Assembly (NCBI GenBank): GCA_024720975.1
Contig: JANJXX010000002.1
Span: 128,001 to 192,000, forward strand
Direction of reading: 5' to 3'
Length of the DNA: 64,000 bases
Source: Thermoproteota archaeon
Lineage (GTDB): Archaea > Asgardarchaeota > Njordarchaeia > Njordarchaeales > Panguiarchaeaceae
The position numbers and the translations under genes are program-made. Positions 7,251-56,410 of the stretch are shown piece by piece; the stretch's first letter is position 1; every line of letters begins with the position of its first letter. The notes under the pieces are model-generated. The model was not told where the DNA came from. It made no database searches and saw only the letters and a list, made by a program, of their open reading frames with translations.

Positions 7251-10200
7251 ATGGTGCAAAAATTGGATGAAAAAGCCATTAAACTCCAAATACCACCTAA
7301 TCTAAAATATCCTGAGAGCTATAAACCATACTTTGAGGAACTCATAGAAAAAACACAAGATGCGTATAGAGTAGCATTAGAAGCTAGAAGCAAAGGTTAT
7401 GACCCGCATACTAGACCTGAAATATCACTAGCCTTTGACCTAGCATCGAGAGTAGAAGCGTTAGTGGGACCAAAGGGTATAAGCGAACGGATAAGAGAGC
7501 TTCAAATGTCTGGTAAAGAGCTTGAGGAAATAGCGATTATAATAGCCAGCGAAATAGCCTCTGGTGCTTGGGAGTTACCAGAAAAAAACCCTGAAGCCGT
7601 CGCTGAGCAAGCATTGAGAACTTCACTTGCTATTGTCACTAATGGCGTTGTAGCAGCGCCTTTAGAAGGAATAGTCGCGGTTAAAATACGACCCGAAAAT
7701 CACATGGCAGTATTCTATGCTGGACCCATACGATCAGCAGGTGGGACCGAAACCGCAATGAGTGTTCTACTGGCAGACATTATTAGAAGAACACTAGGGC
7801 TATCAAAATATAAAGCAACACAAGAAGAAATCGAGAGAATGGTTGAGGAAATATTTCTCTATGACAGATATAGCAACCTGCAGCACCCTCCAAATCGAGA
7901 GGAAATTGTCTTTACCATGCAAAATATTCCCATAGAAGTCAATGGTGAAGGGATCGACAAAGAGGTCCAGATGTATCGTAAAGTGAGATATGTAGATACA
8001 CCAAAAATACGCGGAGGCGCGGTTCTAGTTATAAATGATGGACTAATAGCAAAAGCGAAAAAATTACTCAAGATCATTAGAAAATTTAATATAGATGGTT
8101 GGAATTGGTTGGAAGATCTTACAAAAACGAGTGACTCCAAGAACAGTAATGAAGAAACTAAACAATCAGAAAATAGCAAAAGTGCTGCAGACAAGAGATT
8201 CAGAGTAGAACCAAATTACGCATACATGAATGAAATCGTCATAGGCCGGCCAATATTTGCTTCTCCTATGAAGCACGGTGGATTCAGATTAAGGTACGGA
8301 AGATCAAGAAATACCGGTTTAGCTGCAGTAGGTGTACATCCGGCTACGATGTACATTCTTGAAGAGTTCTTAGCCATATGCACGCAAATAAAGCCAGAAA
8401 GGCCAGGAAAAGGCGCTATAGTCACTCCAGTTGATTGCATAGAGCCACCGGTCGTGTTACTTAAAGATGGCTCAGTCATTAAAGTTGAAACCATCGAGGA
8501 AGCACAAAAAATACGTGAATACATCGAAAAGATATTGTTCTTAGGAGATATGCTCATAGGGATCGGAGAGTTCCTGGAAAATAATCACGTGATTCTGCCT
8601 TCGCCTATCGTTGATGATTGGTGGGAGAAAGAGCTATTAGAAAGACTTTCACAAATAAACGAAAGCGCAAAATTTTTAGAGTACAAGGAGAAATCTTTGA
8701 AGGATCCTGAATTCATGGCCAAACTATCAGAAAAATTAGCTATTCCATGGCATCCTCGTTACACCTACTTCTGGAAAAATATATCAAAGGATGAATTAAT
8801 TTACCTAGCCGAAAGAATTGCGAATTCACCAACTACTACAATTAACTTTGACGCATTGCTAAAAAAGATTCTAGAAAAACTTCTAGTAGAGCACAAGATT
8901 ATTAATGGCAGCATCGTAATTAAGCCTGAGGATTTTGCTGCTCTTAAGATAATAGCCGATAAGGTGCTCGATAACAAAGAAAAAATTAAACTAACATATA
9001 TCAATGCGCTAGAGGTGTTGCAAGAAATAGGACTTAAGATCTACGATAAGTACACCATTTTCATTGGAGCTCGGATGGGAAGACCCGAAAAGGCAAAGCG
9101 ACGAGAAATGAAACCACTTGTGCATGTACTATTTCCTATCGGAGAGGCGGGAAAAACCACACGATCAGCGATACAAGCTATGGACAAAGAAAAGGTTTTC
9201 GAAATCGAAGCAAGTAGTATGTTCTGCAAAAAGTGCCGAAAGTTAACGTTTTATCCATTTTGCCCATCTTGCAAATCACGTACAGTTCCTGTATTTGTAT
9301 GCACAAACTGCAAACAAATATTCACGCAACCCACTAAAAAATGCACGAAATGCAACAATCGAGTCTTGCCGTACACCAGATTCCAGGTAGATTTTAAGCA
9401 ATTGCTAGCTGAGATTGAAGGGATACATGGAATAAAACCACCAAAAGATCTTAGATGTGTGATAGGCCTTATATCCAAAAGAAAAATGCCAGAATACTTA
9501 GCAAAAGGCATACTAAGAGCGAAGTATGATCTATCAGTTTTCCGAGACGGAACTATACGGTTTGATGCCACAGACGCTCCGTTAACACACTTTAAGCCGG
9601 TAGAAATTGGGGTTTCTGTAGAAAAATTAAGAGAATTAGGATATACTCATGACATATACGGAAAGCCTCTAGAAGACTGTAACCAGATCCTGGAGTTGAA
9701 AGTTCAAGACATCATAATAAGCGAAACTGCTGCTGACTATCTCGTCAGAGTAGCACAATTCGTTGACGAACTTCTGGTAAAAGTCTATGGTCTCAAACCC
9801 TACTATAATGCTAAGGATAGATACAGCCTGCTGGGGCACCTAGTTATTGGTCTCGCACCCCATACATCGGCGGGAATATTGGGCCGTATTGTAGGATTTA
9901 CGAAAGCAAAATGCATCTTTGCCCATCCATATTGGCATGCAGCTAAAAGAAGAAACTGCGACGGTGATGAGGACTCAATAATGCTTCTACTCGATGCTCT
10001 TATTAACTTCTCGAAGGAGTACCTACCGAAAAGCCGGGGCGGAAAGATGGACGCTCCTCTCATAGTGACAGTAATATTAAACCCCTTGGAGGTTGATTCC
10101 GAAGTTTACAATCTGGACACAATGAGAGAAATACCGCTCGAATTTTATAGAAAATCACTTAATTATCCCGAGCCCTCTGAAATTGAAAGCATCATAAACA

Positions 10201-10799
10201 ATGTTGAGAAGAGATTAAACACACCAGAGCAGTATGTAAATCTTCATTTTTCAGTAGATACCTCCCAGATAGATCTAGGACCTATAACCACCGCCTATTC
10301 TAGAACTAGAAGCATATTAGATAAGCTTACAAAGCAAATAAATCTAATGAAGAAAATCGCCGCCGTAGATTATGCAGATTCCGTCGGAAGGATTCTAGAC
10401 GGTCACATCCTCAGGGATATTTTTGGTAACTTAAGGTCGTTTGGTACACAAACATTCAAGTGCACGAAATGCAGAAGGACTTACAGAAGAATGCCCATAA
10501 CTGGCAAATGTCCCTCATGTGGAAATACTCTTCAGCTATCAGTATATATAAACATGATTCTGAAGTTCTTTAATACAGCTAACGAGATAGTCGACAACAT
10601 GAGTGAAGAAGATTATAGATCGCAACAATTTAGCAGATTCCTAGCAACGGATTATAGAGTTTTACGCCCAGCTATAAAAGATTTGGCTGAGACATTAGCA
10701 AGTAATGATCTTGAAAACAATAATATTAGAAGGAACAAAAACGAAAATACTGCAGTAGTAAGGAAAATAAAGGTGAATCTATCAGACTTTTTCAGCTGA
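7251..10799 (+). CDS. polC: DNA polymerase D large subunit DP2
   Basis: YAGPIRSAGGT, GGFRLRYGRSRNTG, HAAKRRNCDGDED catalytic motif, Zn fingers, C-terminal PIP-like NLSDFF. Confidence 0.98.
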   Translation: MVQKLDEKAIKLQIPPNLKYPESYKPYFEELIEKTQDAYRVALEARSKGYDPHTRPEISLAFDLASRVEALVGPKGISERIRELQMSGKELEEIAIIIASEIASGAWELPEKNPEAVAEQALRTSLAIVTNGVVAAPLEGIVAVKIRPENHMAVFYAGPIRSAGGTETAMSVLLADIIRRTLGLSKYKATQEEIERMVEEIFLYDRYSNLQHPPNREEIVFTMQNIPIEVNGEGIDKEVQMYRKVRYVDTPKIRGGAVLVINDGLIAKAKKLLKIIRKFNIDGWNWLEDLTKTSDSKNSNEETKQSENSKSAADKRFRVEPNYAYMNEIVIGRPIFASPMKHGGFRLRYGRSRNTGLAAVGVHPATMYILEEFLAICTQIKPERPGKGAIVTPVDCIEPPVVLLKDGSVIKVETIEEAQKIREYIEKILFLGDMLIGIGEFLENNHVILPSPIVDDWWEKELLERLSQINESAKFLEYKEKSLKDPEFMAKLSEKLAIPWHPRYTYFWKNISKDELIYLAERIANSPTTTINFDALLKKILEKLLVEHKIINGSIVIKPEDFAALKIIADKVLDNKEKIKLTYINALEVLQEIGLKIYDKYTIFIGARMGRPEKAKRREMKPLVHVLFPIGEAGKTTRSAIQAMDKEKVFEIEASSMFCKKCRKLTFYPFCPSCKSRTVPVFVCTNCKQIFTQPTKKCTKCNNRVLPYTRFQVDFKQLLAEIEGIHGIKPPKDLRCVIGLISKRKMPEYLAKGILRAKYDLSVFRDGTIRFDATDAPLTHFKPVEIGVSVEKLRELGYTHDIYGKPLEDCNQILELKVQDIIISETAADYLVRVAQFVDELLVKVYGLKPYYNAKDRYSLLGHLVIGLAPHTSAGILGRIVGFTKAKCIFAHPYWHAAKRRNCDGDEDSIMLLLDALINFSKEYLPKSRGGKMDAPLIVTVILNPLEVDSEVYNLDTMREIPLEFYRKSLNYPEPSEIESIINNVEKRLNTPEQYVNLHFSVDTSQIDLGPITTAYSRTRSILDKLTKQINLMKKIAAVDYADSVGRILDGHILRDIFGNLRSFGTQTFKCTKCRRTYRRMPITGKCPSCGNTLQLSVYINMILKFFNTANEIVDNMSEEDYRSQQFSRFLATDYRVLRPAIKDLAETLASNDLENNNIRRNKNENTAVVRKIKVNLSDFFS

Positions 10800-14406: not shown

Positions 14407-16911
14407 GTGCACTTTCATGCATGTTGCTTCGCCTTTATCGAACTTCCCTCATACCACTCTAAGGGGTCCTGCTTGGTTTCTAAAAGTTTTGAGCTCATTA
14501 AATACCTGTTAGGGGACGACATTATAACTGAAATCGAACACGGCACACACAGGAAAAAAATAGCTATGAAGCTCTTAGATAATTTACACCTTCTAAGGCT
14601 ATTTCCACCTCTTAGGGATCTTCTTCCTGCTCTTGCAGCATCTCTCTTCGAGCCCCCTACTCATAGATTAACCCTCATAGAAAAATTTATAATAGAAAGA
14701 GGGCTACTCTCACGAGTATGGATTAAGGATACAGCCACCGAAGAACTCCTTGGAAAGACCATTAAATTAATACAAGATCTTAGTCATGATACCCTGCTGA
14801 AGATATTGGCTGTGATCATGAAGAACTACGCTACAACAAGCGAACTAGAATCGCGACTCGATCATCTTATTGATATGACTTTTACTCTGTATGCTCGCGC
14901 AGGGAAGTTCGATCTAACCGCACCCAAACTTTTTCCATCACCAAAATTTTTATCAGAAATTACAAAGTGCAAAGAACTTGAGGCAAATCCTGATGAAATT
15001 ATTAACGAGGCTATAAGGACTACATGCAGAATCCTGCCCAAGCGTCTGCTTAGTTATTTGGACTTTGCACTCAGAATCTTAACTGGTATAAGCTTGAGGG
15101 AGCTATCTTCAAATACTATATCTAAGTTACTCTTTAGTGAACGATTGGAAGCCATAAAGATTGTATGCATCATCGCGATGCTATACGCCGGATCTTTTTC
15201 TCCTGATAGATTAAGAGAACAAATCAGGCTAAGCCTGTTAGAGTTTCTCATTCGGGAATACATTACATCCAACGACAACATGGTTCATGGCTGGCTAATC
15301 TCGTTACTGTTAACGGTGAGCGCATCTAGAGAAGAGCTACTTAACCTTCTAACAATATATAAGCTCGCTTCAGTCCATGGAGGAAAAGTAATGCTAAGGC
15401 TTCTCGAAACATTATTCGAAAACTCTAATGCCTACCTAATTGCTTGCATGCTAATGCTCTTAACTGCACATCACAACGATGAACTAGAGGCCATAAGCTC
15501 ACTTGCAATTTCAAGAAACAGTACTAGACTTAGGCTTATTAACAGCATACTCATTAAATCCGATCTTAAACCTCACGGATTGACTGCACCTATCCCCTGG
15601 GAGCTATATGGTTCCATCGATAAACTCCTTAGAAGTTGTAAATCAGCGATTACATATTACAAAAATTTATACATCCAGCCACCAAGAAACTTATTAAGAC
15701 TTGACAAATTTCTAGAAAGTGCGAATAACATGATAAACCTCGAGCTTGAGGAGACAACCAACATAGAGGAACTCAAGCAGAAACTTGAACTTACGCTAGA
15801 AACTCTAAGTAGAGGTTATGCTTTCACTAGTGAAATGATAAGAACCTTTGGAATGCTGCCAGGATTCTTCCAAACAATTAATGCTGTAAGGAACACCTGT
15901 AAAAAGCTTAGCGATAGGTGGGAATACACACTTACAAAGGACTATCTAAATTTAGTCACCAAGCATCGAGATTTGTTCACGATATCATCTCTTGATGCTG
16001 TTCAAAGGGAACAGGAACCTATAATCTCCTTAATTATTGATGGCCTCCGCTTCGATGATCTAATTTTGCGGTTACTACCTAAGCTTAAAAAGCGCGGCTT
16101 TAGACTCATACAGGGGGGAGCGAAAATCTCTTTGCTACCATCAATAACGACGGTATCAAGACGAGCTATAATATCTGGAGAACTTCCCCAGCTGCTAGCC
16201 TTCTCTAAAACATCCCTAAAGAGAGAAGACGAAATCCTACTGGGTAGATTCGGACAAAATATCGAGTCTTACTACGGACCAGTGGCAACTGTTTATAGCA
16301 AATTCTCAGAAAGAGAGTATCACTCAAACAAAGTGTTCATAGTACTCAGTGAGCTCGAAAAATCTATGCACGGATCATCAGAAAAAATCCTAGCACATTT
16401 CGTGGATGAATATCTACATAGTATCGTTGAACTGATAATGTATCTAGTAACATCGATTACAAGAAAGCATAAAAAGATACGGATTCTTATATGTTCAGAT
16501 CATGGTCTAAGCGCATTTGTGAAGTTTTATGACTTATCAATTTTCCTAGAAAAGCTAACAAACAAAAAACTCACTGATCCTTCATTGGAGCCGCTAATCA
16601 AGGAACGATTTGCCCTCATTCCATTAAGAAACCCGCAACAGATATTAGAAGCCCAGCAAATTTACAGTTCCGAGGAAGAGTTTCGATACTCGTTTTGGTT
16701 ATTACCTGCAGATAGTCTTGGCTTCAAGGAAATAGAGTTTTATCTGAAAGGAACGAAGACTCTAGCGAAAACTTGTCCCTCATCAAGAGTTGTAATAATA
16801 TTTCCGAAGGGCGACAGGAAACTTATAAGTGGTAAGGGCGCCATATATCACGGAGGTTTATCACCGGATGAAACATTTAGCGCCTATGCCTTACTCTCTT
16901 ATGATGCTTAA
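14407..16911 (+). CDS. Large protein with Leu-rich helical N-terminus and C-terminal PglZ (alkaline-phosphatase superfamily) domain; start may be TTG 14473
   Basis: IIDGLRFDD, SLLPSITTVSRRAIISG, ICSDHG, YHGGLSPDE match PglZ/PorX motifs. Confidence 0.8.
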   Translation: MHFHACCFAFIELPSYHSKGSCLVSKSFELIKYLLGDDIITEIEHGTHRKKIAMKLLDNLHLLRLFPPLRDLLPALAASLFEPPTHRLTLIEKFIIERGLLSRVWIKDTATEELLGKTIKLIQDLSHDTLLKILAVIMKNYATTSELESRLDHLIDMTFTLYARAGKFDLTAPKLFPSPKFLSEITKCKELEANPDEIINEAIRTTCRILPKRLLSYLDFALRILTGISLRELSSNTISKLLFSERLEAIKIVCIIAMLYAGSFSPDRLREQIRLSLLEFLIREYITSNDNMVHGWLISLLLTVSASREELLNLLTIYKLASVHGGKVMLRLLETLFENSNAYLIACMLMLLTAHHNDELEAISSLAISRNSTRLRLINSILIKSDLKPHGLTAPIPWELYGSIDKLLRSCKSAITYYKNLYIQPPRNLLRLDKFLESANNMINLELEETTNIEELKQKLELTLETLSRGYAFTSEMIRTFGMLPGFFQTINAVRNTCKKLSDRWEYTLTKDYLNLVTKHRDLFTISSLDAVQREQEPIISLIIDGLRFDDLILRLLPKLKKRGFRLIQGGAKISLLPSITTVSRRAIISGELPQLLAFSKTSLKREDEILLGRFGQNIESYYGPVATVYSKFSEREYHSNKVFIVLSELEKSMHGSSEKILAHFVDEYLHSIVELIMYLVTSITRKHKKIRILICSDHGLSAFVKFYDLSIFLEKLTNKKLTDPSLEPLIKERFALIPLRNPQQILEAQQIYSSEEEFRYSFWLLPADSLGFKEIEFYLKGTKTLAKTCPSSRVVIIFPKGDRKLISGKGAIYHGGLSPDETFSAYALLSYDA

Positions 16912-17203
16912 ATCCGCCTTTGGGTTTCTCTTTTTCAGCACCCTCCGTTTTTACAGTCTTCTTGAGTTTTGATATCAGGGAGATTATATCTTTGAGAACA
17001 TAGCGCGCACTTTCGCTAAGACCACTTTCAGCTGATACAAGAAGCTTTAGAGCAGCATCTATGACCTCTCCACCACATTTGTTACGTTTTACATAACCCT
17101 CAAGTGTATGAACACATCTATAGGCACTAATGGAGTCGCCGTCTCTTAATGCATTTATAATGTCCCCAGCAAGCCCAAGGACGAGCCTCTCCTCACATGT
17201 CAC
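16877..17203 (-). CDS. Hypothetical helical protein with basic C-terminal tail
   Basis: GTGA start/stop overlap with pop5; 108-aa ORF. Confidence 0.6.
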   Translation of the reverse strand: MTCEERLVLGLAGDIINALRDGDSISAYRCVHTLEGYVKRNKCGGEVIDAALKLLVSAESGLSESARYVLKDIISLISKLKKTVKTEGAEKEKPKGGFKHHKRVRHRR

Positions 17204-17568
17204 CTAGCAACACCATTAGCAGCTTTTAAGAATTCAATAAAGAGTTTCCGTGCGTTTAGTTCTTCCTTAAGCTTTCTGTATGTACCGGAACAGTACAAAT
17301 CATTAAGAATAACCGGTGTTCCCTTGATTTCTCTGAGCAAACCTAAAGCCGTTCTGAGACGCCTCAAGTCTTCACTTAAGCACTTTATTATGACCAAGCC
17401 TCGCTGTTCATCAAAGTCCTCAATATTAAAGATAACATCATAAAATGATCCAAATAGTTCGTATATCTTACGCTTAAGCTCCGCAACGAACTCATCCTTT
17501 GTTATGGTTCTGCTAGTTATAATCTCTAAAGCTAGCCATCTGTACTTTCTCCTAATCAAAGAAAACAC
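17200..17568 (-). CDS. rnp2: RNase P protein Pop5/Rpp14 (component 2)
   Basis: RRKYRWLALEI, ELFGSF, GLVIIKC, SGTYRKL. Confidence 0.88.
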   Translation of the reverse strand: MFSLIRRKYRWLALEIITSRTITKDEFVAELKRKIYELFGSFYDVIFNIEDFDEQRGLVIIKCLSEDLRRLRTALGLLREIKGTPVILNDLYCSGTYRKLKEELNARKLFIEFLKAANGVAR

Positions 17569-17636
17569 CTAACAGAGACTTATAATAATTACTAAACAAA
17601 CAAGAAATTTGCAATTTTCGAGATGTAGATAATAAA

Positions 17637-18551
17637 TTACAGGCTAGTCATTAAACTGAGAGAAAGCGCGGCCAAGAGAGGAAAGAGTATGTTATCATTA
17701 ATTGTTATGCGAGAAGCACCATTTATAAAATCAAGTATCGCCACTATTAAAGACGCCGGTATGGCAATCCACCCCACGATGAGATAGCCAGCAAGAGAAC
17801 CTGTGATGAAGTTCGCTAAGAATCCTTCCAAACTCCTATCGTTTAGTGCTATTCTTCTGCACTTCTTACCGATTATACATGCAGCCAAGTCAGCTAAAAA
17901 TGCAATGGCTATTGCTGCAGCAACTATATCATCATGAGGAAAGAATAACAACGCAACAAGATAAACTGCCGCTGCTGAATATAAATATGAAGCCAATTGA
18001 TTAAGTTCTTTCTCCCTTAACAATACACCAAAAATCGCAGGTTTATAATTGAGTCTCAAAAACTCAATAAAAGTAAACAGCATCAATAGCGCAAGCGCAA
18101 CGGCAAACAACAAAAGACACAAAAAGCCCTCATCCCGCTTTGTAATGAATATCCCAAATGTTGCATATGTACCATCAATGACAAAATTGTATATTTGACG
18201 GTAAAGATGTTTTGGAACAAATAATGCTAGGGCAATTAAATGAAAAGTCTTACGCTTAACTTCATCAATATATGTTTTATTATTTACTACTTTTATCTCG
18301 ACGCGTCCTGTAGCAAATGTTATGAAAATAACTATAAGAATCACGACTGGCAATATAAAGGCAGCAGCGATAGCTAGAAAATATTCCTCTGCCGGCGTGA
18401 ATGGATTCATTCGAATAATATAAAGCAACCCCCACATCATGAGACCTACCAGAAACGCTTCACTTTGAATGCTAGCATGCTTCTTTAGGGCTATGTAGCT
18501 TATAATCGCTGTCATTAGAACTTGAGCCAGTATTAGAAACACTACTTGCAC
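17637..18551 (-). CDS. CTP-dependent polyprenol/diacylglycerol kinase family membrane protein (dolichol/phytol kinase-like)
   Basis: KRKTFHL, EFLRL, LREKE, DLAACIIGK, RSLEG, NDN motifs; multiple TM segments. Confidence 0.85.
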   Translation of the reverse strand: MQVVFLILAQVLMTAIISYIALKKHASIQSEAFLVGLMMWGLLYIIRMNPFTPAEEYFLAIAAAFILPVVILIVIFITFATGRVEIKVVNNKTYIDEVKRKTFHLIALALFVPKHLYRQIYNFVIDGTYATFGIFITKRDEGFLCLLLFAVALALLMLFTFIEFLRLNYKPAIFGVLLREKELNQLASYLYSAAAVYLVALLFFPHDDIVAAAIAIAFLADLAACIIGKKCRRIALNDRSLEGFLANFITGSLAGYLIVGWIAIPASLIVAILDFINGASRITINDNILFPLLAALSLSLMTSL

Positions 18552-18671
18552 CAGGTCAACAGTAGCGGCTAAAACTTATCCAAAGGTTTAAAAGTAAAGT
18601 CGGGGATTGCGTGATAAAGTCGAATTAGTAAATCTTAATCGTACATAATAAAGGAATATAAAAACCCAATA

Positions 18672-18953
18672 CTATACAATACTTTTTATAGCCTCTACGA
18701 TTCGCTTTCCCCTGTCTGTTATCCTTATTGTCCATGCATTAACTCTTGGAGTTATCTTCTTTACAGCAATTCTAACAAGACCAACTTCAGCCAGGAGTAA
18801 AACTGCCTTTCTCACTGCTTTATACTTTGAAAAGCCCAAGTGAATCAATATGTCAGTGAGCTTCATTTCCCCGTATTTGTCTAGGAGGTATAGCACTAAT
18901 ACTGAAAATGGCGAAGAGAGTGCTTGTAGTATAAGCTCTAGACTCAAATACAA
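18672..18953 (-). CDS. Winged helix-turn-helix DNA-binding protein (ArsR/MarR-like)
   Basis: VLYLLDKYGEMKLTDI...LAEVGLV...ITDRGK wHTH pattern. Confidence 0.8.
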   Translation of the reverse strand: MYLSLELILQALSSPFSVLVLYLLDKYGEMKLTDILIHLGFSKYKAVRKAVLLLAEVGLVRIAVKKITPRVNAWTIRITDRGKRIVEAIKSIV

Positions 18954-19265
18954 CCCCCAATAATCATAGAGTAAAAATAGTTAGAAAGACTTAAAAACGT
19001 AGAATACGAAACATGAGGCACTGCATTGACTCTAATAGATCCCAGAAAAACACAGAACTAAAGTCTCTTAATGTATACAATAAGACGATTTAATAATAGT
19101 CTGATACTGTGAATTTCACAAAAGGGTGTTTCAACCTATTACATTTAGCCAACAAAAATCATCAGTAAGCACCCTGTATAACAGACATCAACTTCACAAG
19201 TGCCACTTCCTGTGAACAAAACTTGTTAACTTTGCGAATCTATTGAACCTAGCTAGCATCGTTTC

Positions 19266-19285
19266 TCCAGTGGAAATGGGGGGTC
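19266..19285 (+). promoter_or_regulatory. Origin recognition box (ORB)
   Basis: TCCAGTGGAAATGGGGGGTC matches the archaeal ORB consensus TCCA-n3-GAAA plus G-string. Confidence 0.8.
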
Positions 19286-19396
19286 TTGAAAAAACAGACT
19301 AGAATCAGACTTTCAGAGACAATATAATTGCTAGAGGCATATCTGAAAGGCTCAACAGTTTCTACAAGAACTCAGTGACCCAAGTGAATCCCTGTA

Positions 19397-19418
19397 GACC
19401 CCTGGTCTTCCTATATAG
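19397..19418 (-). promoter_or_regulatory. Degenerate ORB, inverted relative to the 19266 box
   Basis: Reverse complement CTATATAGGAAGACCAGGGGTC (GGAA-n5-GGGGTC). Confidence 0.45.
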
Positions 19419-19625
19419 TTAATATCAACATATTTGTGAATCGTGCTGTTATACGTGAACTATACGCGAAGCATATCCTAGTTTCACATTCTCTAACTTC
19501 CAATAGTGAAGTTAACTATCCACCTAACAGCTTAGATTTTAGTTCCATGATTGAATGCTTCTTCTCTGTAGAAAGTCGTCTTTGGCGGGGCTTTTTGTTA
19601 TTGGTGTTCGGATGTTATTGGGTGC

Positions 19626-19646
19626 TTCAATGGAATTTAAGGGGTC
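19626..19646 (+). promoter_or_regulatory. Degenerate ORB
   Basis: TTCAATGGAATTTAAGGGGTC aligns with TCCAGTGGAAATGGGGGGTC. Confidence 0.55.
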
Positions 19647-19973
19647 ATCACATTCACTTGCGAAGATAGTTAGGTAAATAAGGATTCCTGTAAATTGCCC
19701 ATGGTGGGAGAATGTCGTTGTATTTGTCCTCAGCTGGTGCCATATGTAAGTCAAGTAGCAAAATTGTCTGATTAACTGCCGAAGTATGGCATTAATTGAT
19801 TTAGGAGACTTTCACTCGAGGATAAATTACTGACTCCTATTTCCCTAAAGTATTATCTACACTGCTTGCTCATGGTTTTGATTCTGTGAAAGTTAGATAG
19901 CTTAGCATATCTATTCGTGTATTCGTTGCGTATAACGTTCGATATACACTTCACTTTAATTTCACTGCATGAT

Positions 19974-19990
19974 GATTACCATTGGTAATC
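19974..19990. promoter_or_regulatory. Perfect 8-1-8 palindrome, candidate operator
   Basis: GATTACCA-T-TGGTAATC ending 13 bp upstream of the ATG at 20004. Confidence 0.5.
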
Positions 19991-20003
19991 TTGGTAGGAC
20001 TAG

Positions 20004-20486
20004 ATGCCGACATTGAATATTAAAGTGAAAGTAGGAGATACTGAGGTAGAAGTTAAAGCAGATGGTACTTTGGATAAGGAAACTATTCATGCTATTAGGA
20101 GCATCTTAGCCCCTCTCGCGTCTAGAATTCCGTCTGCCGCTGCTGTTAGGGACAATGCTAGTCTGAATAATAACACTGATGACATTGCTGTAAATAGTCA
20201 GGATGCATTTGTGAGGAATGTTAACTTGTATGCCAAATTTAAGGAACTAATGCTTAACGTGTTCAAGCTTGGACAGTGGTTTACGTCTATTGATGCTAAA
20301 GAAGTGTTCCATGATACTTATGGGATCCTTCTGAAGTCGTCAACTGTGACGACATATCTCCGTCGTATGGAGGATGAAGGGCTACTGACGTCTAAGAGAC
20401 AAGGACGCCTATTGCAGTTTAGGATTTCAGCAGTTCCTCTCTATGCAACTCTTGCAGAATCGGAATTTAATGAACTTAAAGCTTAG
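20004..20486 (+). CDS. DNA-binding protein with N-terminal beta-hairpin/helix module and C-terminal winged helix
   Basis: WFTSIDAKEVF...LKSSTVTTYLRRMEDEGLLTSKRQGR wHTH; low-complexity linker. Confidence 0.8.
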   Translation: MPTLNIKVKVGDTEVEVKADGTLDKETIHAIRSILAPLASRIPSAAAVRDNASLNNNTDDIAVNSQDAFVRNVNLYAKFKELMLNVFKLGQWFTSIDAKEVFHDTYGILLKSSTVTTYLRRMEDEGLLTSKRQGRLLQFRISAVPLYATLAESEFNELKA

Positions 20487-20493
20487 GTCTGGT

Positions 20494-22109
<1,616 letters not shown>

Positions 22110-53430: not shown

Positions 53431-53524
53431 TGGCGCCGGGGGGCGGACTCGAACCGCCGACCTCCCGGTGTCTACTCGATTGCATCACTAACAGCCGGAC
53501 GCTCTACCACTGAGCTACCCCGGC
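53431..53524 (-). tRNA. tRNA-Asn(GTT) with a 19-nt canonical intron (53470-53488), CCA encoded
   Basis: Mature TCCGG-CTGTTAA-CCGGG; central helix CTGT/GTAG. Confidence 0.93.
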
Positions 53525-56316: not shown

Positions 56317-56410
56317 GCCGGGGTTCACGAGTTGGAACGTGGCGTGCCTGGAGACATGTCGGAAAGCACGTGGCGTTTGCGCCTCGCGGGTTCGAGTCCC
56401 GCCCCCGGCA
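56317..56410 (+). tRNA. tRNA-Ser(GGA) with an 11-nt intron (56354-56364)
   Basis: GCCGGGG acceptor; mature CGTGC-CTGGAGA-GCACG; long variable arm; helix CTGG/TCGG. Confidence 0.88.

Follow-up and report, generated by a model that had tools for sequence, protein, structure and literature searches.

The window considered here, the whole 64-kb stretch of DNA that was analyzed, sits on a 200-kb contig (C19) in the assembly of a hot-spring Asgard archaeon (Njordarchaeales). The assembly analyzed comprises 1.36 Mb and is 81% complete, and further origins are possible. Two divergent genes in the window enclose a gap of 1,050 bp that lacks any ORF of at least 80 aa. ORF-free gaps of this kind number 991 in the assembly (median, 78 bp; 95th percentile, 443 bp), and this one ranks fourth longest, in agreement with the original observation of an interval of about 1.05 kb in a tightly packed genome. 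The features of the locus are as follows.

18672-18953, - strand: small ArsR/MarR-like gene of 93 aa, oriented away from the gap; apparently a neighbor and not a conserved part of the origin
18954-20003, no strand: putative origin region, a 1,050-bp gap free of conserved genes, with the origin recognition boxes (ORBs), the GTGAA/TTCAC array, and the skew switch inside
19109-19965, no strand: box array, 14 GTGAA/TTCAC, 7 per strand, with a palindromic pair at 19108-19120
19264-19287, + strand: ORB1, strong (29.6 bits); core at 19266-19276, G-string at 19278-19283
19396-19419, - strand: vestigial ORB2; keeps GGAA-N6-GGGGTC, TCCAGT half lost; partly conserved in the sister genome G003
19528-19565, no strand: compositional switch point on the 200-kb contig; amino-keto maximum at 19528, cumulative GC-skew minimum at 19565
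19624-19647, + strand: ORB3, weak; core at 19626-19636, 357 nt upstream of the winged-helix gene
19945-19965, + strand: promoter-proximal block with TACACTTCACTTTAAT and another TTCAC, some 45 nt ahead of the start codon of the winged-helix gene; identical in G003
20004-20486, + strand: winged-helix gene (160 aa), transcribed away from the ORBs

A possible RNA gene in the gap was discarded because an Rfam scan of 17000-22000 at E values of up to 1 gave no match there; a tRNA search of the gap also found none. Two short ORFs (19436-19669, + strand, and 19539-19754, - strand; 77 and 71 aa) were rejected as genes: neither has a Pfam match, and both fall in the least conserved stretch of the G000/G003 alignment. 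A generic repeat finder returned just short two-copy families and picked out neither the ORBs nor the boxes.

Strand composition and ORBs of the gap

Both compositional extremes fall inside the gap, so that an inflection earlier judged by eye is now a computed one. The skew is negative on the left (-0.054) and positive on the right (+0.047), the sole clean sign switch among contigs longer than 25 kb. GC3 skew, expressed in the + strand frame, is -0.014 for + strand genes and -0.065 for - strand genes on the left, against +0.118 and +0.098, respectively, on the right; non-ORF DNA passes from -0.040 to +0.058. Genes pointing away from the gap make up 64% on the left and 60% on the right. Since the switch is present in the genes of both strands and in non-ORF DNA, it is not an artifact of gene orientation. 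Local skew likewise turns from negative to positive across the ORB cluster at all seven Njordarchaeales loci with enough flanking sequence and in 11 of 16 Asgard families. In the closed genome G014, from another Asgard family, the only ORB pair adjoins the same winged-helix gene and orc1; there the skew is weak and locally of opposite sign, and whole-genome skew gives no clean two-replichore picture. Given this exception, the skew rule is not valid for the phylum as a whole. Skew is a record of history, not of present firing.

ORBs, which are Orc1/Cdc6 recognition sites made up of a dyad core and a G-string, were scored with a weight matrix trained exclusively on 65 ORBs from other Asgard genomes and applied to the whole assembly. 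The near-consensus ORB noted at 19266 received the top score in the assembly, the next best being 13.7 bits. It carries the core TCCAGTGGAAATGGGGGGTC exactly, an 11-nt sequence found once in the entire 1.36 Mb, and differs from its counterpart in G003 by one base. The scan found no second ORB of at least 14 bits anywhere in the assembly. The third copy, noted at 19626, is real but weak: at 13.7 bits it is joint second in the assembly, lies on the same strand as ORB1, is conserved in G003, and is the positional equivalent of the promoter-proximal ORB at the loci of families f2 and f3.

The inverted degenerate copy proposed at 19397-19418 stood in part. Its position and its G-string half hold up, with the G-string facing that of ORB1 across about 110 bp, but as a full ORB it scores -10.4 bits, the 3' half contributing 6.8 of 22 bits. 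It occupies the place of a good inverted middle ORB in the sister family f3 and is read as a decayed ORB2. ORB1, the ORB2 remnant, and ORB3 follow the (+)(-)(+) layout of the order, with the spacings of about 150 and 200 to 250 bp that are common to the sister family, where three good ORBs occupy the same positions. Wherever a Njordarchaeales locus includes DNA upstream of the winged-helix gene, ORBs lie upstream in the same order, bar three congeners: in G001 they are 4.2 kb away, and in G002 and G004 none were seen. The spacers between ORBs are 62 to 63% AT in this genome (60% genome-wide) versus 70 to 80% at the same positions in the sister family; by this measure, no AT-rich unwinding element is apparent between the ORBs here. 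With ORB2 vestigial and ORB3 weak, the origin looks eroded in this genome.

An adjoining orc1/cdc6 gene is usual at archaeal origins but is not obligatory. The assembly holds two such genes, one at 91427-92626 of C19, 54.6 kb to the left of ORB1 and outside the window, and the other at 270615-271832 of a second contig, C11. The absence of cdc6 from the 64-kb window was correctly noted, and an Orc1 encoded elsewhere was correctly proposed: one copy is 55 kb off and the other on another contig. The C11 copy is orthologous to the orc1 that adjoins the origin in other Asgard lineages. No orc1 lies within 10 kb of the winged-helix locus at any of 12 Njordarchaeales loci or at any of 7 loci of family f9. 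Initiator gene and origin can thus be uncoupled in Njordarchaeales.

Flanking genes and the GTGAA/TTCAC array

The gap had been described as bracketed by two divergent winged-helix genes. The divergence is confirmed, and the right-hand protein has a winged helix according to its predicted model and to sub-threshold family matches; the left-hand gene has weak ArsR/MarR/HxlR-type matches only. The latter was confined to Njordarchaeales among the genomes searched, adjoins OTCase rather than facing the gap opposite the winged-helix gene in three of four congeners, and is on other contigs in the sister family. Judged by these comparisons of sequence and gene order, the left-hand gene is without a conserved link to the putative origin. 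The flanking housekeeping genes (tRNA-splicing endonuclease, OTCase, and PolD) and their layout are kept across the order; the DP2 gene of PolD is 8.5 kb away from ORB1 in this genome and is an immediate neighbor of an ORB in family f7.

The 160-aa protein is predicted to consist of an N-terminal beta-hairpin and helix, a disordered linker, and a C-terminal winged helix, present in one copy at about residues 75 to 141 of the model. It belongs to an unnamed family of proteins of 130 to 220 aa, found as a single copy in 115 of the 151 Asgard genomes searched and represented by 411 clusters among 1.84 billion proteins. At 60 fetched loci, ORBs were 17-fold denser within 1.5 kb of the gene (0.351 per kb) than elsewhere (0.020 per kb). 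Thirteen of 23 families have orc1 no more than 5 kb from the gene, usually adjacent to it outside Njordarchaeales, and where orc1 is gone (families f1 to f3 and f9) the winged-helix gene remains with the ORBs. Throughout the Asgard phylum, the family is physically linked with ORB clusters, and it is the sole protein-coding gene found to accompany them in most sampled Asgard families. Synteny with ORB-containing gaps in relatives, suggested for both flanking genes, accordingly holds for the right-hand gene and not for the left. The same division applies to the proposal that the two encode origin factors: the family of the right-hand gene is tied to ORBs phylum-wide, the left-hand gene has no such conserved link, and binding to the origin is putative for both.

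To judge from the model, the fold is generically ArsR/PadR/MarR-like. The top Foldseek matches are all ArsR/SmtB, PadR, MarR, and BlaI-type winged-helix regulators (E values of 1e-3 to 1e-2), and the best solved relative by sequence is an ArsR (2e-5 over 42 residues). No Pfam or NCBIfam model reaches its cut-off, the Penicillinase_R model scoring 21.1 against 22.6 bits. Several more specific identities were considered and rejected. The protein has one winged helix, not two as in a WhiP/Cdt1-type factor, and no Cdt1 family occurs among the Pfam matches listed for 21 members at E values of up to 0.1. It is not a stand-alone C-terminal winged helix of Orc1/Cdc6 (hhalign probability against 21 Asgard Orc1 proteins, 1.2%; Cdc6_C Pfam match in 1 of 21 family members, with an E value of 0.054). 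Nor is it a homologue of OapA, OapB, or OapC, the small GTPase, DUF2073, and DUF2072 families being absent among the Pfam matches listed, or of UBP: a helix-turn-helix with a wing is predicted, and the 50 solved-structure matches listed are almost all winged-helix regulators, with no UBP among them, so that any likeness to UBP would be one of function. An alignment-based prediction of a complex with the C11-type Orc1 scored 0.00 (mark, 0.32) and is uninformative either way.

The related-locus search with a 12-row alignment returned Njordarchaeota-type MAGs only. Look-alikes in the ESM Atlas are labeled Bathyarchaeota and Nitrososphaerota; congeners of this genome themselves appear in public records as "uncultured Nitrososphaerota," and for that reason the Atlas labels were set aside and not counted as range beyond Asgard.

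The gap also carries a dense array of short boxes. Fourteen GTGAA/TTCAC cores were observed where 1.9 were expected, which makes this the most enriched pentamer in the gap (P = 1.6e-8) and the gap the richest 1-kb window of the assembly. Half of the boxes read TGTGAA and most others AGTGAA; five of the 14 are kept in position in G003. At the origin loci of 11 of 23 Asgard families, no hexamer is more enriched than TGTGAA, though families f5 and f6 have the winged-helix gene without box enrichment. In G001 and family f7, where gene and ORB are 1.6 to 5.4 kb apart, boxes number 8 to 12 per kb at the ORB versus 0 to 3 per 600 bp beside the gene. The boxes follow the ORB and are therefore origin elements, not merely the gene's own operator. 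Within the promoter-proximal block at 19945-19965, the sequence is that of a possible TATA element overlapped by two boxes, with a presumptive role in the promoter.

Interpretation of the locus

Replication of the chromosome very probably starts at an ORB-type origin in the gap at 18954-20003. This reading is well supported: the strong ORB is unique in the assembly, the skew switches sign in the gap, and the locus is conserved within the order. Orc1/Cdc6 from a distant gene, likely the C11 copy, would bind ORB1 and, more weakly, ORB3 and would load MCM, and forks would depart both ways. A second, undescribed layer would be formed by the (T/A)GTGAA array over the ORBs together with the winged-helix gene directly downstream of ORB3. 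This account as a whole, an ORB-type chromosomal origin with a distant Orc1 and a second layer of boxes and winged-helix gene, we hold to be probable.

What the winged-helix protein does is proposed with more reserve. It may bind the boxes, including the two in its own promoter, and act as an accessory origin factor, a plausible role to which we would give somewhat less than an even chance; it might then influence how Orc1 binds, how MCM is loaded or leaves, or when the origin fires, as a parallel to UBP at ucm. More tentatively still, the locus could represent an unreported Asgard origin module made up of ORBs, an iteron-like array of TGTGAA (TGTTAA in one family), and a winged-helix protein that reads the array. 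If so, the protein would be a second, lineage-wide origin factor beside Orc1 and the only protein still encoded at the origin where orc1 has left (Njordarchaeales and one other family).

It is also possible, if on the unlikely side, that the origin is real and the winged-helix protein an ordinary ArsR/PadR-type transcription factor, the boxes being operators for it or another factor and the proximity to ORBs inherited gene order. The closest relatives in sequence and fold are small repressors, two conserved boxes lie in the gene's own promoter, and, as the haloarchaeal oapABC genes illustrate, genes linked to an origin can serve unrelated processes (PMC7002104, PMC10927574). Inherited gene order is nevertheless difficult to reconcile with a linkage to ORBs that persists in most families though local gene order in the phylum is otherwise scrambled, and that has twice outlasted the departure of orc1 from the locus. 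Boxes that go with the ORB and not with the gene when the two are separated would likewise be unexpected for a simple autoregulator.

A centromere-like module for segregation or chromosome organization next to the origin, built of the same protein and boxes, appears improbable. Precedents are parS/ParB near the bacterial origin and AspA, a winged-helix protein on the Sulfolobus plasmid pNOB8. Such a module would fit the numerous short repeats that lie in either orientation next to the origin, and AspA turns up as a weak match (E value of 0.15) when the sequence is compared with solved structures, but this likeness is no better than that to dozens of other winged-helix repressors, and no partition ATPase gene was seen adjoining the winged-helix gene in the window.

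The ORBs themselves could instead be Orc1 operators for the neighboring gene, with replication starting at another site, perhaps within the 19% of the genome that is missing. The presence of a single strong ORB, the apparent lack of an AT-rich unwinding element in this genome, and a separate ORB pair 3 to 4 kb away at the loci of family f9 would all accord with this. We judge it very unlikely: the skew changes sign in the gap and nowhere else in the 1.36 Mb, the same switch recurs in relatives, and no other ORB in the assembly reaches 14 bits. That the gap is a replication terminus, or an origin belonging to an integrated mobile element, is scarcely credible, for although skew switches mark termini too, the + strand is C-rich to the left and G-rich to the right, as is usual for a G-rich leading strand leaving an origin, ORBs are initiator sites, and the housekeeping neighbors and layout kept across the order exclude a recent insertion.

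As a probable ORB-type start site, the locus is a concrete Njordarchaeales origin candidate that can be tested with sequence-level probes. In the literature searched, we came upon no Asgard replication origin mapped by experiment and no published description of a winged-helix/TGTGAA origin module; the closed Odinarchaeum chromosome was simply opened at its skew minimum (PMC9246712). Together with the 60 related loci, the region defines two conserved components that standard annotation missed, the winged-helix family and the TGTGAA array, and both give direct predictions for EMSA, ChIP-seq, and marker-frequency work in cultured Asgard archaea. For Asgard MAGs whose skew is uninformative, the origin can be placed with the ORB matrix and the winged-helix profile as practical markers.

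Comparison with known origins

The locus resembles the oriC-cdc6-PolD locus of Pyrococcus and Thermococcus in its ORB consensus, TTCCAGTGGAAA followed by a G-string, and in having a PolD gene nearby. In Thermococcales, cdc6 is located at the origin, and we know of no TGTGAA array or resident winged-helix gene described there. Sulfolobus oriC3 likewise has no adjoining orc1/cdc6 and has an adjacent winged-helix gene. WhiP, which is Cdt1-related and has two winged helices, itself specifies oriC3; unlike that origin, the present locus keeps canonical ORBs, and its protein has a single winged helix and no Cdt1 match among those listed. The comparison with WhiP would therefore hold by function only.

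Haloarchaeal oriC1, with orc1 and the divergent oapABC genes, is a further case in which a large clade retains a conserved set of non-initiator genes next to its main origin (PMC7002104). None of the three Oap proteins is a winged helix: OapA, also called ArvA, is a small GTPase required to form vesicles, OapB belongs to DUF2073, and OapC is a zinc ribbon of the DUF2072 type (PMC10927574). By analogy, OapA, which was named for its origin linkage and proved to be a vesicle-forming GTPase, warns that function should be read from origin synteny with caution.

A parallel in design is oriC1 of Sulfolobus/Saccharolobus, where the ucm motif is bound by UBP (Dhanaraju et al. 2025, PMC12141716). There, too, an ORB-type origin (with Orc1-1) is combined with a second short element inside the origin, recognized by a small DNA-binding protein that is not an initiator. 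At 111 aa, UBP is a saddle-shaped nucleoid protein rich in beta structure, with hundreds of sites, and is not origin-encoded (PMC12141716). At the Asgard locus, in contrast, the candidate is an origin-encoded 160-aa winged-helix protein, known from sequence, and the element is a multi-copy TGTGAA array rather than a single 11-bp ucm.

ORB elements and strand composition of the gap

The gap at 18954-20003 is very probably a real, conserved chromosomal origin. Put at about 1.05 kb in the original prediction, it spans 1,050 bp and is the fourth longest of 991 gaps lacking an ORF of at least 80 aa (median, 78 bp) in the G000 assembly, the Njordarchaeales genome under study (1.36 Mb, 29 contigs, 81% complete, 40% G+C). 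Within G000, the window covers C19:128001-192000. No Rfam family (scan at E up to 1) and no tRNA was found in the gap. Elsewhere in the window, two 94-nt tRNA-like genes (53431-53524, minus strand; 56317-56410, plus strand) received odd anticodon calls from ARAGORN ("tRNA-Stop" with tta and a four-base tgga) and are probably misread intron-containing tRNAs.

The entire assembly was scanned with a 24-nt weight matrix for origin recognition boxes (ORBs), built from 65 ORBs of other Asgard genomes to avoid circularity.

ORB elements of the gap, scored with the matrix from other Asgard genomes
19264-19287, plus strand: ORB1, 29.6 bits, best of the assembly
19396-19419, inverted: vestigial ORB2, -10.4 bits; the GGAA...GGGGTC half alone is kept (6.8 of 22 bits)
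19624-19647, plus strand, as ORB1: ORB3, 13.7 bits, the next-best score level of the assembly

The near-consensus box predicted at 19266 proved to have an exact core, TCCAGTGGAAA, present once in the assembly, and the third copy predicted at 19626 scored among the next best. The predicted inverted copy failed as an ORB by score, but its position and order fit the middle box of two other Njordarchaeales families, f2 and f3. With loci oriented on the right-hand winged-helix gene, these families carry three good ORBs in (+)(-)(+) order, spaced by about 70-150 and 70-250 bp, and the triplet stops 110-200 nt ahead of that gene. Since the G000 elements follow the same order, with spacings of 154 and 206 bp, the inverted copy is not a chance resemblance; in this genus, the middle ORB has decayed and the third has weakened. 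Spacers between the G000 ORBs are 62-63% AT, compared with 60% for the genome and 70-80% for sister family spacers. Calculation of AT content and stability revealed no clear AT-rich unwinding element in the G000 origin; the 60-mer of lowest stability is found some 150-200 bp to the left of ORB1.

A compositional switch had also been suggested here by eye, and computation placed it within the gap. Cumulative GC skew along the 200-kb contig C19 fell steadily to a minimum at window position 19565 (C19:147565) and then rose, while amino-keto disparity was maximal at 19528. GC skew averaged -0.054 left of the switch and +0.047 right of it. Among the other G000 contigs longer than 25 kb, none showed a comparable sign change, and the 410-kb and 150-kb contigs were monotonic. 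Of the genes left of the gap, 64% are directed away from it, as are 60% of those to its right. The switch is not a by-product of gene orientation, since third-position skew (plus-strand frame) changed from -0.014 to +0.118 in plus-strand genes and from -0.065 to +0.098 in minus-strand genes, and skew of non-ORF DNA changed from -0.040 to +0.058. This polarity is the one expected where a G-rich leading strand departs from an origin. Skew likewise turned from negative to positive across the ORB cluster in each of the seven Njordarchaeales loci whose flanks were long enough; 11 of 16 Asgard families showed this turn.

For "Ca. Odinarchaeum yellowstonii" LCB_4, a local GC-skew minimum was taken as the putative origin and used as the record start (PMC9246712). 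Skew alone is an unreliable guide across the phylum, because in the closed Asgard genome G014 (1,418,269 bp, reassembled from pieces) it is weak, irregular, and of opposite sign at the ORB locus. That chromosome has just two ORBs of at least 14 bits, both next to orc1 and the winged-helix gene at 622.7-622.9 kb; they score 37.8 and 38.2 bits and are inverted, 190 bp apart (G014:C1:622650-625600; loci L043 and L127).

Initiator genes outside the window

As predicted, the 64 kb contain no cdc6, and the orc1 of this origin is encoded elsewhere. G000 carries two full Orc1/Cdc6 genes, both of which encode AAA+, lid, and Cdc6_C domains.

Orc1/Cdc6 genes of G000
C19:91427-92626: copy 1, 54.6 kb left of ORB1, outside the window
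C11:270615-271832: copy 2, on a separate contig

The matrix scan found no ORB of at least 10 bits near either gene. Identity to the origin-adjacent orc1 of other Asgard lineages is 41-48% for the C11 copy and 27-31% for the C19 copy; the C11 copy is thus their orthologue.

The winged-helix gene and TGTGAA boxes at Asgard origin loci

One or both of the winged-helix genes flanking the gap were originally proposed as possible origin factors, and synteny tied only the right-hand gene (20004-20486, plus strand) to origin loci. Up to 20 kb around this gene was scored for orc1 and ORBs (a core allowing one mismatch, together with the G-string) in 60 genomes of 23 families. In the 60 loci, ORB density reached 0.351 per kb up to 1.5 kb from the gene, compared with 0.020 per kb farther away. 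Fourteen families had at least one ORB within 1.5 kb, and 13 had orc1 within 5 kb, typically in the layout ORB(-), ORB(+), winged-helix gene, ORB(+), orc1. No orc1 was found within the fetched 10 kb in any of 12 Njordarchaeales loci or seven loci of family f9, yet the gene still lies beside ORBs there. Thus, the winged-helix gene tracks the binding sites of the initiator and not the initiator gene.

A search of 41 genomes detected the left-hand gene (18672-18953, minus strand; 93 aa, with only weak ArsR/MarR/HxlR-type matches) in Njordarchaeales alone. Three of the four congeners have it beside OTCase and not facing the gap opposite the winged-helix gene, and in family f3 the two genes are on separate contigs. 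It is a neighbour in G000 and does not belong to the origin. In all four congeners it keeps the same adjoining gene as in G000, which encodes a 304-aa multi-pass membrane protein with no Pfam match (17637-18551, minus strand).

Gene order near the origin is reshuffled within the genus (L024, L025, and L042 of congeners G001, G004, and G002, respectively, compared with window 16877-22094). The winged-helix/EndA/OTCase block is inverted in these congeners relative to G000. About 4.2 kb with several ORFs separates the winged-helix gene from the ORB pair in G001, and the 20 kb fetched around the gene in G004 revealed no ORB.

The 160-aa winged-helix product could not be matched to a family: it scores 21.1 bits with Penicillinase_R, below the cut-off of 22.6, and has no meaningful NCBIfam match. 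An AlphaFold model built from a 21-sequence alignment (mean pLDDT 77; C-terminal domain, 94-98) has a two-strand beta-hairpin and helix (residues 3-40) joined by a disordered linker to a winged helix (75-141); among solved folds, it is closest to ArsR, PadR, MarR, and comparable small regulators. Derivation from the Orc1 winged helix was rejected (hhalign probability, 1.2%). A profile search of 1.84 billion representatives yielded 411 clusters, 281 at E 1e-10 or better, and the profile matched 115 of 151 Asgard genomes sampled, nearly always in single copy. Weak matches (E 1e-8 to 1e-10) to 290-320-aa proteins of family f12 (L058-L060, L078), with no ORB or orc1 nearby, probably reflect a family of longer paralogues distinct from the origin-linked gene.

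The gap contains 14 GTGAA/TTCAC boxes (1.9 expected) and is the assembly's most enriched 1-kb window for them; GTGAA is also its most enriched pentamer (p = 1.6e-8). TGTGAA accounts for half of the boxes and AGTGAA for most of the remainder, and one pair forms a palindrome (19108-19120). Five of the 14 are position-conserved in the sister genome, G003, two of them in a block identical to G000 that lies some 45 nt ahead of the start codon of the winged-helix gene. Across the 60 loci, sequence within 500 bp of ORBs is enriched three-fold in GTGAA, and a T precedes 66% of the copies. When all hexamers were counted with ORBs masked, TGTGAA was the most enriched in origin zones of 11 of 23 families. 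In family f10 (L034, L035, L056, L057) the top hexamer is TGTTAA instead (53 observed, 10.9 expected), a one-base variant hinting that the boxes may co-evolve with whatever reads them. In family f9 (L049-L055), one ORB lies within 10-11 boxes immediately upstream of the winged-helix gene; most of these loci have one or two more ORBs 3-4 kb away, nearly box-free in the two loci counted.

In G001 and family f7, the winged-helix gene and a strong ORB are 1.6-5.4 kb apart, with 8-12 boxes per kb at the ORB and 0-3 per 600 bp beside the gene. Since the boxes remain with the ORB after separation, they are origin DNA and not merely the gene's operator. By linkage, both the winged-helix gene and the TGTGAA array belong to the conserved make-up of Asgard origin loci. 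That the winged-helix protein would bind the boxes is plausible but somewhat less likely than not, and a role for it in replication, also plausible, would be less likely still. Origin synteny can mislead about function, as it did for haloarchaeal OapA, a GTPase since shown to act in vesicle formation (PMC10927574).

Comparison with known origins

The gap origin is of the classic archaeal ORB kind. Among the papers searched, none described ORB-type origins in Asgard archaea, nor the TGTGAA array or the winged-helix family there, and a recent survey of Asgard replisome evolution mentions none of them. A distance of 8.5 kb separates ORB1 from the gene for the PolD large subunit (7251-10799, plus strand), which in family f7 (L039, L045) directly adjoins a perfect ORB; this resembles the oriC-cdc6-PolD neighbourhood of Thermococcales. 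Origins lying apart from their initiator gene are also known elsewhere, Sulfolobus oriC3 being one. The nearest functional parallel to the box array and winged-helix gene is the ucm motif of Sulfolobus oriC1, bound by UBP, a protein that contacts MCM and is indispensable for origin activity (PMC12141716). UBP differs from the winged-helix protein in fold, and it is not origin-encoded and binds hundreds of sites (PMC12141716).
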